A DNA stretch of 17,318 nucleotides from a virus. Shown in pieces: positions 8,122 through 16,687 of the stretch. Within the stretch, counting starts at the first letter, position 1; every line of letters begins with the position of its first letter. A program made the position numbers and the translations under genes. The notes below the pieces were generated by a model. That model was not told the origin of the DNA and searched no databases. It saw only the letters and a list, made by a program, of their open reading frames with translations. The stretch lies in UHGV virus genome UHGV-0074612. The stretch is one strand, 5' to 3'.

Positions 8122-9204
8122 TTAGAACTGGTAAACCATACCTACAGCAACGATATCATCGGTAGCAACGCCAGATGCTTTCGTGAAATCGCTCTTATCA
8201 ATCAGGTTGATTTTGTAGTCAACAAAAGTGGACATATTTTTGTTGAAGTAATAGGTTGCACCTACATCAACATATTCAACCAGGTCCTGATCACCCCAAA
8301 CACCCAAGTCTTTTCCTTTAGAATGCAGGTAAGCAACGGATGGACGCAGGCCGAAGTCGAACTGATATTGTGCAACAGCTTCGAAGTTTTGTGCTTTGTT
8401 GGCAATATGGTTATTACCAAAAACAGTCATGTTCTGGGTTTCAGAATAGGTGGTGGCCAGATAGATGTTGTTCGCATCATATTTCAGACCAGCTGCCCAT
8501 ACTTCAGCATTTTGACCAGAAGCATTCAGACCGTTGTTACCGTAGATAACCTGATTATTAGTGCGATCAGATTTAGCATAGGTTGCACCCACGCCGAATC
8601 CTTCATACTCATAAGTAGTTGAGAAACCGAAACCATCGCCATTAGCTTCAGTTACTTCATTTCGGTCATTTTTGCCCTGATACTGAGCTGCAAAGTTCAG
8701 GCCATCAACCAGACCAAAGAAGTCGTTGTTACGATAAGTTGCAACACCTGTGGTGCGACCAGTCATGAATACATCTGTTTGGGTCCAGGTATCGCCACCG
8801 AATTCTGGCAGAACGTCGGTCCATGCACCGATGTCGTATGCTACACCGTAGTTACGGCCGTAATCGATGGAGCCGTAGTCACCGAATTTCAGGCCAGCGA
8901 AGGCAAGACGGGTTTTATCTTTGGAGGAACCTTGAGATTCAGCGCGGTTGCCTTTGAATTCATATTCCCACTGACCGAAACCAGTCAGTTGATCGTTGAT
9001 TTGGGTTTCACCTTTGAAGCCAAGACGGGCATAAGTAGTATCACCATCATCTGCATCATTAGAGGAGAAGTAGTGCTTAGCATTAACTTTCCCGTACAGA
9101 TCCAGCTTGTTACTGTCTTTATTATAAATTTCAGCTGCCTGAGCAGACATCGCCATCAGTACTGATGCAGCTACAGCAGAAATTGCCACTGTTAATTTTT
9201 TCAT
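8122..9204 (-). CDS. nmpC: OmpC/OmpF-family general porin, prophage-encoded (NmpC/Lc-like)
   Basis: 360-aa ORF with signal peptide [23 protein letters not shown] then AEIYNKD..., C-terminal VGMVYQF ending in Phe; located between Q and the holin on the opposite strand, as nmpC is in DLP12. Confidence 0.93.
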
Positions 9205-11644: not shown

Positions 11645-11910
11645 GTGATCGTGTCATTGAATGCGCCTCCAGAGCGGGGCGCGACTTCTCAGAGTTCATG
11701 AAAGGCGAGAAGGGCATGATGGAAGCATTGGCCTCGGTGGATGAGTTTGGCGAGCAGCTGCGCCTCAACGGCTGTGTCAATCATCACTTTGTTAGCTACA
11801 TGATGCGGAACTCGATCATGCAGGCATTCATGGACATGGCAAAAGCCGAGAGGAAAGAAGAGCGCCGGCGTAAGCGAGCGGAAGCAAAAGCAAAAGCAAA
11901 AGTGAAGTAG
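11641..11910 (+). CDS. Hypothetical protein (89 aa) with Lys/Arg/Ala/Glu-rich C-terminal tail
   Basis: ATGA overlap with the stop of the KilA-N-like gene; C-terminus AKAERKEERRRKRAEAKAKAKVK. Confidence 0.6.
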   Translation: MSDRVIECASRAGRDFSEFMKGEKGMMEALASVDEFGEQLRLNGCVNHHFVSYMMRNSIMQAFMDMAKAERKEERRRKRAEAKAKAKVK

Positions 11911-11947
11911 CCATTACAAAGCCCATTTACGGGTGGGCTTGATAATG
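11911..11947. repeat. Hairpin-containing element, copy A
   Basis: CCATTACAAAGCCCATTTACGGGTGGGCTTGATAATG immediately after the TAG of the 89-aa gene; stem AAGCCCA/TGGGCTT (11919-11925/11934-11940). Confidence 0.5.
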
Positions 11948-12134
11948 AAACCGGAATTTATTCTGGGCCACCAGTTAACGGCAGTACCACGAAACAACCC
12001 AAGCCAGTAAGTGGGGAAATAACACCGGCAGCCACTGAAAGATGAACCTCCTGCCTTATGGCAAAAAAGATTCTTTGTGGTGGCGGACTGATGGAAAGAC
12101 ATCCTAATTTCAGCCAAACATTGAAGGAGTTGTT

Positions 12135-12206
12135 ATGTCAGCAGAAGGTTTCAATAACCCATCAAAATTCCGGGATGAGTGGGATAGCAGCGTAAAGAGT
12201 AAGTGA
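12135..12206 (+). CDS. Candidate 23-aa ORF MSAEGFNNPSKFRDEWDSSVKSK
   Basis: AAGGAG Shine-Dalgarno 6 nt upstream of the ATG; stop immediately precedes copy B of the hairpin element. Confidence 0.3.
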   Translation: MSAEGFNNPSKFRDEWDSSVKSK

Positions 12207-12207
12207 T

Positions 12208-12249
12208 GCCATCACAAAAGCCATTCCCTACAGAGTGGCTTTGATAATG
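12208..12249. repeat. Hairpin-containing element, copy B
   Basis: GCCATCACAAAAGCCATTCCCTACAGAGTGGCTTTGATAATG; shares the CCAT(Y)ACAAA(A)GCC ... GGCTT(T)GATAATG framework with copy A, with base changes that still pair in the stem. Confidence 0.5.
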
Positions 12250-12264
12250 GCTTATACCCTACAC

Positions 12265-12290
12265 GGGATAACTTAACTGATATCCCTTTT
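12265..12290 (+). terminator. Possible intrinsic terminator
   Basis: Stem GGGATA/TATCCC (12265-12270/12281-12286), 10-nt loop, then TTTT. Confidence 0.4.
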
Positions 12291-12498
12291 AAAGGATAAA
12301 GGCATTCAAGCCTGACACATCATGCGCTGTATCGTCGCCGTATTCCCGTATTAACAGAGACCGTAGCCCGACGGGGAACTCCTTCTGCGCGAGTGTGCGG
12401 GAATAATCAAAAACGATGCACACCGGGGTTACCGGGTACACATATTTCATCATGCCAGCGAGTCCGGTTCTGGCACGGAAGAAACCGGACGTTATGAT

Positions 12499-12909
12499 TT
12501 AGTGCGGAAATATTTGTGTAGTGTTCTGAATGTTCTCAGTAAAGAGTAATGAATTATCAAAGGTATAGTAATACCTTTTGTTTTCGTGGATATTTGTAAT
12601 CCATCTGAAAACCCCTGCTGTAGCAAGATTTTTCCTGTATTCGTAAAATGATAACTCTCCTGATTTGAATCCTTTTAAGGTGGCTTCTATAAGGCATTTA
12701 TTTTTTGAAAATCTTACATTTACAACCTTACCCTGTCCTTTTATTAAAACCGTATTATCGTTTTCAAGAACAAGATGAATATTCTCTGTGGCTAAATAGT
12801 AAATGTAATGTGAGACATTGTGACGTTTTAGTTCAGAATAAAACCAGTGATAGTTTAAATTATTTCGCACTTTATCGAATATTTGTTTAAAAATGGCAAC
12901 CTGAGCCAT
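12499..12909 (-). CDS. YbcV-like (DUF1398-like) protein, 136 aa, AT-rich
   Basis: Track ORF 12499..12924; ATG at 12909 preceded by GAAGGT gives [17 protein letters not shown]..., matching my recollection of DLP12 YbcV and its 136-aa length. Gene is markedly AT-rich relative to its flanks. Confidence 0.75.
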
Positions 12910-12966
12910 TGTAGTACCTTCCATGTGATATGAGGGGGCGTAGTCTGCACGATTATCTAAATTGCT

Positions 12967-13200
12967 TCAATCTGGTCTAACCTGTTTTCTGAGCAATTCA
13001 GTAATGTCACTCTTTTCTTTGTTTGCTTCAGGCGAAACTCTTTTTTCTGAGCACAGTCTCCGGCGGCAGGCTTCAATGACCCAGGCTGAGAAATTCCCGG
13101 ACCCTTTTTGAACAAGAGCGATGTTAATTTGTTCAATCATTTGGTTAGGAAAGCGGATGTTGCGGGTTGTTGTTCTGCGGGTTCTGTTCTTCGTTGACAT
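12967..13200 (-). CDS. YlcI-like small protein with putative ribbon-helix-helix fold (77 aa)
   Basis: Co-directional and 42 bp upstream of the YbcV-like gene; basic N-terminus then RNIRFPNQMIEQINIALVQKGSGNFSAWVIEACRRRL, which reads like a strand-helix-helix unit. Confidence 0.6.
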   Translation of the reverse strand: MSTKNRTRRTTTRNIRFPNQMIEQINIALVQKGSGNFSAWVIEACRRRLCSEKRVSPEANKEKSDITELLRKQVRPD

Positions 13201-13379
13201 GAGGTTGCCCCGTATTCAGTGTCGCTGATTTGTATTGTCTGAAGTTGTTTTTACGTTAAGTTGATGCAGATCAATTAATACGATACCTGCGTCATAATTG
13301 ATTATTTGACGTGGTTTGATGGCGTAGATGCACGTTGTGACATGTAGATGATAATTATTATCATTTTGCGGGTCCTTTC

Positions 13380-13445
13380 CGGCGATCCGACAGGTTACGG
13401 GGCGGAAGGCGCGCGGGTTTTCGCTATTTATGAAAATTTTCCGGG
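13380..13445. other. cos site region with cosN-like 12-mer at 13400-13411
   Basis: GCGATCCGACAGGTTACG + GGGCGGAAGGCG + CGCGGGTTTTCGCTATTTATGAAAATTTTCCGG; both flanks match the lambda right and left ends as I recall, but the 12-mer differs from lambda GGGCGGCGACCT at its last six positions. Confidence 0.65.
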
Positions 13446-13508
13446 GAAAATCATGTCGGTACTTCTCGAACATAACTATTTGTTTTTTCTAATATCGAAT
13501 CCGTAAAA

Positions 13509-13563
13509 GGTCCGACATGAAAACGCCTAAAAAAGTCATTTTCGGGCACTTTCATGTCGGACC
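13509..13563. repeat. Perfect 14-bp inverted repeat with 27-bp A-rich spacer, in cosB position
   Basis: GGTCCGACATGAAA (13509-13522) and TTTCATGTCGGACC (13550-13563); sits between the cosN-like site and the Nu1-like start codon at 13588. Confidence 0.7.
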
Positions 13564-13587
13564 CTGTGTTTGTTGTTAGACTGTTTC

Positions 13588-13704
13588 ATGAAGGTTAATA
13601 AAAAGAAACTTGCCGAAATTTTCAACGTGGATCCGCGAACGATTGAACGCTGGCAGTCTCAGGGACTCCCTTGCGTCTCCGGAGGTGGCAGCGGGCCATC
13701 ATGA
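13588..13704 (+). pseudogene. Terminase small subunit (Nu1/gp1-like), N-terminal 38-codon stub
   Basis: [38 protein letters not shown] then stop; resembles the Nu1 N-terminal DNA-binding segment (lambda MEVNKKQLADIFGASIRTIQNWQEQGMPVLRGGG). The frame ends where terminase A homology begins. Confidence 0.75.
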
Positions 13705-14570
13705 ATGCGATGGGCAGTGACTACATCCGCGAGGTGAATGTGGTGAAGTCTGCCCGTGTTGGTTATTCCAAAATGCTGCTGGGTGTTTATGCCTACTTCA
13801 TAGAGCATAAGCAGCGCAACACCCTTATCTGGTTGCCGACGGATGGTGATGCCGAGAACTTTATGAAAACCCACGTTGAGCCGACTATTCGTGATATTCC
13901 GTCGCTGCTGGCGCTGGCCCCGTGGTATGGCAAAAAGCACCGGGATAACACGCTCACCATGAAGCGTTTCACTAATGGGCGTGGCTTCTGGTGCCTGGGC
14001 GGTAAAGCGGCAAAAAACTACCGTGAAAAGTCGGTGGATGTGGCGGGTTATGATGAACTTGCTGCTTTTGATGATGATATTGAACAGGAAGGCTCTCCGA
14101 CGTTCCTGGGTGACAAGCGTATTGAAGGCTCGGTCTGGCCAAAGTCCATCCGTGGCTCCACGCCCAAAGTGAGAGGCACCTGCCAGATTGAGCGTGCAGC
14201 CAGTGAATCCCCGCATTTTATGCGTTTTCATGTTGCCTGCCCGCACTGCGGGGAGGAGCAGTATCTTAAATTTGGCGACAAAGAGACGCCGTTTGGCCTC
14301 AAATGGACGCCGGATGACCCCTCCAGCGTGTTTTATCTCTGCGAGCATAATGCCTGCGTCATCCGCCAGCAGGAGCTGGACTTTACTGATGCCCGTTATA
14401 TCTGCGAAAAGACCGGGATCTGGACCCGTGATGGCATTCTCTGGTTTTCGTCATCCGGTGAAGAGATTGAGCCGCCGGACAGTGTGACCTTTCACATCTG
14501 GACGGCGTACAGCCCGTTCACCACCTGGGTGCAGATTGTCAAAGACTGGATGAAGACGAAAGGGGATACC
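13689..14570 (+). pseudogene. Terminase large subunit A, internal fragment (about residues 58-350 of lambda gpA)
   Basis: Track ORF 13671..14630; [50 protein letters not shown]... through ...[14 protein letters not shown] is lambda gpA as I recall. It lacks the gpA N-terminus and C-terminal half; the frame then runs into J-derived sequence out of frame. Confidence 0.85.
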
Positions 14571-14571
14571 C

Positions 14572-15883
14572 GAACACGGCACTGGTCGGCGTGCAGGTGG
14601 ACTCGGAGCAGTTCGGCAGCCAGCAGGTGAGCCGTAATTATCATCTGCGCGGGCGCATTCTGCAGGTGCCGTCGAACTATAACCCGCAGACGCGGCAATA
14701 CAGCGGTATCTGGGATGGAACGTTTAAGCCAGCATACAGCAACAACATGGCCTGGTGTCTGTGGGATATGCTGACCCATCCGCGCTACGGCATGGGGAAA
14801 CGTCTTGGTGCAGCAGATGTGGATAAATGGACGCTGTATGTCATCGGCCAGTACTGCGACCAGTTGGTACCGAATGGTTTTGGCGGCACGGAGCCGCGCA
14901 TCACCTGTAATGCCTGGCTGACCACACAGCGTAAGGCGTGGGATGTGCTCAGTGATTTCTGCTCGGCGATGCGCTGTATGCCGGTATGGAACGGGCAGAC
15001 GCTGACGTTCGTGCAGGACCGACCATCAGATAAGGTGTGGACCTATAACCGCAGTAATGTGGTGATGCCGGATGATGGCGCGCCGTTCCGCTACAGCTTC
15101 AGCGCCCTGAAGGACCGCCATAATGCCGTTGAGGTGAACTGGATTGACCCGAACAACGGCTGGGAGACGGCGACAGAGCTTGTTGAAGATACGCAGGCCA
15201 TTGCCCGTTACGGTCGTAATGTCACGAAGATGGATGCCTTTGGCTGTACCAGCCGGGGGCAGGCACACCGCGCCGGGCTGTGGCTGATTAAAACGGAACT
15301 GCTGGAGACGCAGACCGTGGATTTCAGCGTGGGTGCTGAAGGGCTTCGCCATGTACCGGGCGATGTCATTGAAATCTGCGATGATGACTATGCCGGTATC
15401 AGCACCGGTGGTCGCGTGCTGGCGGTGAACAGCCAGACCCGGACGCTGACGCTCGACCGTGAAATCACGCTGCCATCTTCCGGCACCACGCTGATAAGCC
15501 TGGTTGACGGGCAGGGGAGTCCGGTCAGCGTGGAGGTTCAGTCCGTCACCGACGGACTTAAGGTGAAAGTGAACCGGGTTCCTGACGGCGTTGCAGAATA
15601 CAGTGTGTGGGGGCTGAAGTTGCCGACGTTGCGTCAGCGCCTGTTCCGCTGTGTGAGTATCCGTGAGAACGATGACGGCACGTATGCCATCACTGCCGTG
15701 CAGCATGTACCGGAAAAAGAAGCCATCGTGGATAACGGGGCGCACTTTGACGGCGACCAGAGCGGCACGGTGAATGATGTCACGCCGCCAGCGGTGCAGC
15801 ACCTGACTGCCGAAGTCACCGCAGACAGCGGGGAATATCAGGTGCTGGCGCGCTGGGACACGCCGAAGGTGGTGAAGGGGGTG
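14572..15883 (+). pseudogene. Tail tip protein J, internal fragment
   Basis: Track ORF 14591..16687 begins at a GTG inside J-like sequence ([28 protein letters not shown]...). J homology runs to ...[12 protein letters not shown]; the J N-terminal third and C-terminal receptor-binding region are absent. Confidence 0.85.
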
Positions 15884-16687
15884 AAGGCACATTACAGAAA
15901 TGGAGGTCTGTTCTACCGTTCCTCAAGAGATGGCTATGGTTTTGAGGAAGACTGGGCAGAAGTTTATACCTCGAAAAATCTTCCACCAGAAAGCTACCCA
16001 GTCGGCGCACCAATCCCGTGGCCATCAGATACCGTTCCGTCTGGTTATGCCCTGATGCAGGGGCAGACTTTTGACAAATCTGCATACCCGAAACTTGCAG
16101 CCGCTTATCCGTCAGGCGTGATCCCTGATATGCGTGGCTGGACGATTAAGGGCAAACCTGCCAGTGGTCGCGCCGTATTGTCTCAGGAACAGGACGGCAT
16201 TAAATCGCACACCCACAGCGCCAGCGCATCCAGTACGGATTTGGGGACGAAAACCACATCGTCGTTTGATTACGGAACCAAATCCACGAATAACACCGGG
16301 GCGCATACCCATAGTATTAGCGGGACCGCAAATAGTGCCGGCGCGCACCAACACAAGAGTTCCGGTGCATTTGGTGGCACGAACACGAGCATTTTCCCTA
16401 ATGGTTATACCGCGATTTCAAATCCAAGCGCGGGGATTATGAGCACAACAAGCGGTAGTGGTCAGACTCGTAATGCAGGGAAGACATCATCAGATGGTGC
16501 TCATACCCACTCGCTGTCCGGCACTGCTGCAAGCGCAGGCGCACATGCACATACTGTCGGTATTGGTGCTCATACGCACTCCGTTGCGATTGGCTCACAT
16601 GGACACACCATCACCGTTAACGCTGCGGGTAACGCGGAAAACACCGTCAAAAACATCGCATTTAACTATATTGTGAGGCTTGCATAA
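15884..16687 (+). pseudogene. Side tail fibre (Stf-like) C-terminal region, fused in frame to the J fragment
   Basis: ...[45 protein letters not shown]... with repeated Gly/His boxes ([30 protein letters not shown]) and C-terminus [11 protein letters not shown], typical of lambda Stf and T4 gp37-type fibre tips. Confidence 0.8.

Follow-up and report, generated by a model that had tools for sequence, protein, structure and literature searches.

A lambda-family cos site with a variant cohesive-end 12-mer in a defective prophage: probably a widespread and cleavable natural allele of cosN

The 17,318-nucleotide stretch of DNA analysed here as a whole (virus genome UHGV-0074612, referred to as the window) contains a site that resembles the joined ends of the phage lambda genome on both sides of a 12-mer that is not the one of lambda. 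This raises the question of whether the site is a broken cos, a cos of a different specificity or a natural variant that packaging enzymes would still cut. We consider it likely that positions 13370–13564 form a structurally complete lambda-family cos with a phage-21-type cosB, and that its cosN is a widespread natural allele which can be cleaved and gives sticky ends different from those of lambda.

The lambda genome ends (NC_001416, 48200–48502 joined to 1–300) were used as the reference for a base-by-base alignment. Window positions 13400–13411 read GGGCGGAAGGCG, and the cosN 12-mer of lambda, phage 21 and their close relatives is GGGCGGCGACCT. An earlier, sequence-only reading of this DNA had stated that both flanks match the lambda ends, and they do: 13380–13399 agrees with lambda 48483–48502 at 19 of 20 positions, and 13412–13444 is lambda 13–45. 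The likeness to lambda stops at 13445, and rightwards of this point the sequence is a phage-21-type cosB. The same reading had described the 12-mer as altered at six positions. The alteration is real and the count is five (7 C>A, 8 G>A, 9 A>G, 10 C>G and 12 T>G, with 7/12 positions in agreement), because C11 is retained. The five changes are packed into six neighbouring bases of cosN; elsewhere, the surrounding stretch of roughly 130 bp is the same as in the viable phages 2H10 on its left and IdasGreatGrand on its right. Phage 21, IdasGreatGrand, 2H10 and Turner all carry GGGCGGCGACCT amid near-identical surroundings.

The site is composed of the following features:

13370–13376, plus strand: cosQ, exact heptamer GGGTCCT, at the lambda distance to cosN and collinear with lambda
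13398–13413, plus strand: cosN, CG followed by GGGCGGAAGGCG (13400–13411) and CG, from the alignment to the lambda ends
13412–13444, plus strand: spacer between cosN and cosB, identical to lambda bp 13–45
13445–13564, plus strand: phage-21-type cosB, 85% identical to phage 21 (M81255) and 97% to IdasGreatGrand
about 13449–13464, plus strand: R3, CATGTCGG at 13452
about 13505–13521, inverted: R2, inverted copy of CATGTCGG at 13512
about 13548–13564, plus strand: R1, CATGTCGG at 13553

In the description of lambda-family cos sites that we followed, cosQ is the packaging-termination element and cosN is recognized by 12 bp between the nicks, a left half GGGCGG and CG flanks; the identity of bp 7–12 is not defining, and natural variation there is common (PMC4669245). 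The cosN of the window reads CG GGGCGG AAGGCG CG, so that the left half and both nick-flanking CG pairs are conserved, and bp 7–12 differ from the CGACCT of lambda at 5/6 positions. From the termini of the lambda and N15 records we infer a top-strand nick at 13399/13400 and a bottom-strand nick at 13411/13412. The 33-bp right spacer is common to nearly all the cos sites that we collected, of either allele. R3, I1, R2 and R1 are annotated in M81255, and the R-box offsets in the window are equal to those of phage 21; a strict WATCAANNNNTTR scan of 13381–13600 for an IHF site gave no match on either strand. The 21-type R boxes and the first 33 residues of a 21-type small terminase subunit (TerS) point to phage-21 packaging specificity and, cosN aside, window 13367–13688 is 97% identical at the DNA level to IdasGreatGrand, a viable isolated phage.

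Lambda-like phages often differ at cosN bp 7–12 (Feiss et al., 2015; PMC4669245): N15 and phiD326 differ from lambda at bp 9 and 12 and Gifsy-1 at bp 8, 9 and 11, and cosN-N15 is cut by the lambda large terminase subunit (TerL) as efficiently as its own site. In the account of earlier genetics given by the same paper, right-half mutations are minimal in effect and the symmetric left-half ones severe (Xu and Feiss, 1991), changes at bp 7–12 have no measurable effect on cos cleavage by lambda TerL (Xu and Feiss, 1991; Hang et al., 2001), and the left/right asymmetry depends on the anchoring of TerL by cosB (Hang et al., 2001); the elements described as being under selection are the nick-flanking CG pairs, the left half and cosQ (PMC4669245). 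The published tests comprise single and double changes and the N15 allele with its two changes; here there are five, of which C10>G and T12>G adjoin the bottom-strand nick. As all five changes fall within bp 7–12 and everything known to matter is conserved, the allele fits the published pattern. The claim in the sequence-only reading that terminase could not produce lambda-type cohesive ends from this site thus holds for the sequence of the ends, which would not be that of lambda, but the supposed failure to nick is contradicted by the genetics in PMC4669245.

Other right-half alleles exist as well. The N15 record, which we checked, has the 12-mer GGGCGGCGTCCG, and among phage records PhiR70.1 (L226) carries GGGCGGAGACCT and cdtI (L215) and phi458 (L220) carry GGGCGGGAGCGT. 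Our collection contained still other cosN alleles, namely GGGCGTCAGGCG (L110, L134 and L140), GGGCGGCGACCG (L069) and GGGCGACGACCT (L097); GGGCGTCAGGCG also alters bp 6, and both contigs tested for it were without an intact TerL. With AAGGCG, GGGCGGAGACCT and GGGCGGGAGCGT, these three look like a stepwise allelic series. We also considered that AAGGCG might have been copied from the AAGGCG of lambda R3 (TTTAAGGCGTTTCC) or have arisen by quasi-palindrome correction, but the related alleles AGACCT and CAGGCG point rather to stepwise change.

The allele of the window turned out to be recurrent. An exact 34-mer across the site was found in 14 IMG/VR contigs, with lambda flanks, and an 18-mer (the 12-mer with the flanks ACG and CGC) in 86, about 83 of them obvious cos sites with more than 35 flank combinations and many unrelated cosQ-to-cosN spacers. 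These sites span three types of cosB, with lambda R boxes, with phage-21 R boxes and a third one beginning AGCATTTTAAGGGG. cosQ is kept in almost all of them, though the spacers are very diverse, and bp 1–6 and the CG flanks are invariant. The third cosB type, which contains TATTTATGAGCATTTTAAGGGGACTGGTGGTGG and was seen with the variant cosN at the IMG/VR loci L145, L154, L196 and L202, is neither lambda- nor 21-type.

Among 5,426 complete E. coli genomes, the canonical 12-mer is present in about 4,340 and the variant allele in about 114–178, as calculated by subtraction between two 48-mer probe searches; this count is given only as a range because megablast sometimes extended the probes through the mismatch cluster. 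The 21-type version of the site occurs at 99–100% identity in 48 complete genomes, including ETEC H10407, and the cos of K-12 itself is canonical, its match at 578995 being 89.6% identical to the variant probe. In GenBank phage records the exact 12-mer is found in PhiR46_1 (PV340565) and YDC107_1 (CP025712); all but two of about 70 matching records have the canonical form, the variant being the minority. An exact 34-mer scan of the GTDB representatives gave no match, which is uninformative because E. coli is represented there by a single genome. This recurrence shows that the 12-mer is neither an error nor the product of chance. A literature search for GGGCGGAAGGCG returned no paper naming it, its sole return being an unrelated plant paper, and the allele is apparently unnamed.

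The genomic contexts of the allele were inspected for the state of the genes that follow it. Full-length nu1 (181 aa) and A (641 aa, 99.2–99.7% identical to gpA) follow the variant in eight IMG/VR contigs. In E. coli 582 it is followed by nu1 through J, lom and stf, all annotated as intact, in what is apparently a complete prophage, and in two further genomes with the variant nu1, A, W, B and C are intact. In PhiR46.1 (PV340565) the allele stands beside a lambda-type morphogenesis operon that is complete. Its status as an isolated temperate phage rests on the host field of the GenBank record and on the strain table of PMC13190303, a study in which the phage panel that includes it was screened by plaque assays; as the record runs through cos without ending there, its physical ends are deduced. 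In the same record (L222, PV340565 17000–46290) the lambda-type cos, terminase, head and tail module occurs together with ParA/ParB and an annotated telR site, which identify PhiR46.1 as an N15-like linear-plasmid prophage. YDC107_1, the second record with the variant, is assigned to Ravinvirus. The ETEC H10407 prophage (L224, NC_017633 1287895–1328080) has the variant cosN with a 21-type cosB, and an IS66-family element is located in it between the head-decoration and major-capsid genes.

These contexts bear on the possibility that the five substitutions inactivate cosN, and that the allele survives only in prophages that do not package. The prophage of the window is plainly defective, that of H10407 has its IS66-family insertion in the head genes, and almost all sequenced phage isolates carry the canonical 12-mer, as a dead nicking site would lead one to expect. 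However, intact terminase genes follow 37 of 42 non-redundant variant IMG/VR sites against 45 of 57 canonical ones, a difference that is not significant and that comes from a crude ORF-length test, in which the sequence of the window itself (L012) was wrongly scored as intact and the variant count was corrected for it. The presence of the allele in apparently complete prophages and in the isolated phage PhiR46.1 likewise argues against inactivation, as does the dispensability of bp 7–12 for cleavage in the published genetics (PMC4669245). Moreover, the allele has spread over more than 35 flank combinations with bp 1–6, the CG flanks and cosQ invariant, which marks a site on which selection still acts. 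A dead nicking site is therefore very unlikely, and the altered 12-mer does not signal decay. The suggestion of a decayed prophage was correct for the element, with its truncated nu1 and its deletions, and failed as an explanation of the 12-mer, since the allele also stands before intact nu1 and A. A sequencing or assembly artefact, which the earlier reading had allowed for as a read error in the 12-mer, would suit a sequence of metagenomic origin, and window 11840–16684 (L012) is indeed 100% identical to the 18,053-bp metagenome viral contig IMGVR_UViG_3300039332_000035; the identical 12-mer in dozens of independent contigs from isolate genomes, in complete genomes and in GenBank phage records refutes it, and its probability is practically nil.

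A distinct cos specificity, also proposed on the sequence, would mean that the allele is cut solely by a co-adapted terminase nuclease, cosN and TerL forming a new pair. The TerL proteins encoded after 45 variant and 41 canonical lambda-like sites were compared column by column. TerL does not co-vary with the allele. Six identical TerL proteins were found with both alleles, the TerL beside the variant site at L181 is 100% identical to lambda gpA, and both alleles also pair with a 21-type TerL of about 65% identity. The substitutions N9D and S21A are enriched beside the variant (about 22 of 45 sites against 3–4 of 41 canonical ones, loci L006–L212), and these two are the sole TerL columns whose frequencies lie more than 0.3 apart in the two classes of site. 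Residues 9 and 21 belong to the N-terminal TerS-binding segment, outside the nuclease domain, and this segment adjoins nu1 and is in this way physically linked to cos; the enrichment is probably due to linkage with a nu1 variant rather than to function. Co-adaptation at gpA residues 509 and 515, which can extend cosN specificity, was rejected because no variant-linked TerL departs from lambda gpA there. T466I was also examined as a candidate; it is frequent, yet missing from L014 and L006. What speaks for a new cosN/TerL pair is thus the excess of N9D and S21A (22/45 against 3/41); the place of both residues near nu1 rather than in the nuclease, the lack of any other column differing by more than 0.3, and the TerL sequences shared between alleles, from exact gpA to the 21 type, all speak against it, which leaves a distinct specificity highly improbable.

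Taken together, the conserved elements, the lack of TerL co-variation and the right-half genetics make this site best read as a cleavable cos, and lambda-type packaging enzymes most likely cut the variant normally. By analogy with lambda, TerS dimers on the R boxes of cosB (R3, R2 and R1) would anchor a TerL protomer, which would nick the bottom strand between bp 12 and 13 (13411/13412); being positioned by cosB, this protomer would be almost indifferent to bp 7–12. A second protomer would read the conserved left half and make the top-strand nick before bp 1 (13399/13400). With both nicks at the lambda positions, the predicted products are 12-nt 5′ overhangs of this allele, GGGCGGAAGGCG at the left end and CGCCTTCCGCCC at the right end, which would pair within the allele and form five mismatches against the ends of lambda.

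The element in which the site lies is a different matter. Downstream of cos, the window contains the following gene remnants:

13588–13704, plus strand: truncated small-terminase gene (nu1/gene 1, 21 type), 38 codons and then a stop
13689–14578, plus strand: internal fragment of gene A, codons about 57–353, out of frame with the nu1 remnant
14576–16687, plus strand: fragment of J (from codon about 212) with a side-tail-fibre-like C-terminus, with lambda matches

Residues 1–33 of TerS are identical to those of IdasGreatGrand and match phage 21 gp1 at 30/33 and lambda Nu1 at 19/33 positions; the small-terminase homology ends at 13688, and the protein is non-functional because it is truncated after 38 codons. 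The A fragment is 98.4% identical to lambda A at the nucleotide and 99% at the protein level. At the junction 13688/13689, codon 34 of nu1 meets codon ~57 of A, and 587 bp are missing compared to IdasGreatGrand; at the second junction, about 14576–14578, A codon ~353 is joined to J codon ~212 with a TAC microhomology. The J/stf hybrid is 95% identical to lambda 16138–17455 and then continues with lambda 21245–21500. Its J homology ends at 15884, a segment like lambda stf (orf-314) covers 16004–16259, and Pfam matches are to Phage-tail_3, Ig_J and Collar. Compared to lambda about 14.4 kb are absent, which removes the head genes and most of the tail genes, from W through I, together with the N-terminal part of J. 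With these genes gone, nu1 truncated and A partial, this is not a functional, inducible prophage, and it is dead through large deletions, not through the cosN variant.

The architecture of the deletion junctions was not found in any of the 5,426 complete E. coli genomes and, since the window is probably the same sequence as IMGVR_UViG_3300039332_000035, the junctions rest on a single assembly. Because the adjoining terminase and all head genes are deleted, the cos of the window is an orphan; for it to be cut, a co-resident phage of 21-type packaging specificity would have to act in trans. In its left part, the window has genes for a lambda-type integrase, exo/bet and a porin, lysis genes, and genes for KilA-N and DUF1398 proteins. 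The porin gene (8122–9204, minus strand) is intact, codes for a general porin of 360 aa (Pfam Porin_1, E = 4e-152) and has the late-regulatory region on one side and the lysis genes on the other, as has nmpC in DLP12-type prophages.

If alleles of this kind are cut, the right halves of cosN might act as cohesive-end compatibility groups, an idea that we regard as unlikely. Packaging from the cos of one allele to that of another would produce ends mismatched at 5/12 positions, which would rarely cyclize; such mixed ends could derive from tandem or neighbouring prophages, mixed concatemers or hijacking islands. For a two-base end mismatch, a roughly four-fold reduction in yield has been reported, with both alleles reaching the progeny (PMC4669245). 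Were the idea true, the allele would partly isolate its carriers from cross-packaging with phages of the canonical allele, and rare mismatched successes would transfer the 12-mer as one block between flanks that are otherwise identical. The mosaic distribution of the allele is compatible with compatibility groups; ordinary flanking recombination explains it equally well.

Reading the site as a natural and cleavable cosN allele has practical consequences. A non-lambda cosN 12-mer is not to be scored as prophage decay, and a few per cent of the lambda-type cos sites of E. coli would escape annotation and phage-terminus tools that search for GGGCGGCGACCT. The known natural tolerance of the right half of cosN would be widened from two or three changes to five. 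The allele agrees with the model that a TerL protomer anchored by cosB has almost no sequence requirement when it nicks the bottom strand, and this allele offers a natural substrate to probe both this nicking model and the limits of end mismatch in cyclization.

Compared with known systems, the site shares with lambda cos the cosQ heptamer and its spacing, cosN bp 1–6 and C11, the CG pairs at the nicks and the 33 bp that follow cosN on the right, and differs from it at cosN bp 7, 8, 9, 10 and 12 and in having a 21-type instead of a lambda-type cosB. With phage 21 (M81255) and IdasGreatGrand (PP925829) it has in common the R3, R2 and R1 boxes (CATGTCGG) at equal offsets, whereas these two phages carry the canonical GGGCGGCGACCT and intact terminase genes. 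As in N15, phiD326 and Gifsy-1, the variation is confined to bp 7–12 and the left half and CG flanks are conserved, but there are five changes here and two or three there; furthermore, the allele is associated with complex cosB of lambda and 21 type, whereas the cosB of N15 is simple. PhiR46.1 and YDC107_1 are identical to the window in the cosN 12-mer and the 33-bp right flank, and differ from it by their lambda-type cosB, their intact Nu1 and A and their complete virion genes.

For the element as a whole, the closest layout is that of the DLP12-type prophages, which likewise have an integrase, exo/bet, a porin, essD/rrrD/rzpD-like lysis genes, a ylcI-like gene and cos, and after cos a Nu1 homologue followed by remnants of terminase A and tail fibre; the comparison is with the gene order of K-12 DLP12. 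K-12 differs in that the 12-mer of its cos is canonical. The genes in the left part of the window and the remnant to their right together are a DLP12-like defective lambdoid prophage.
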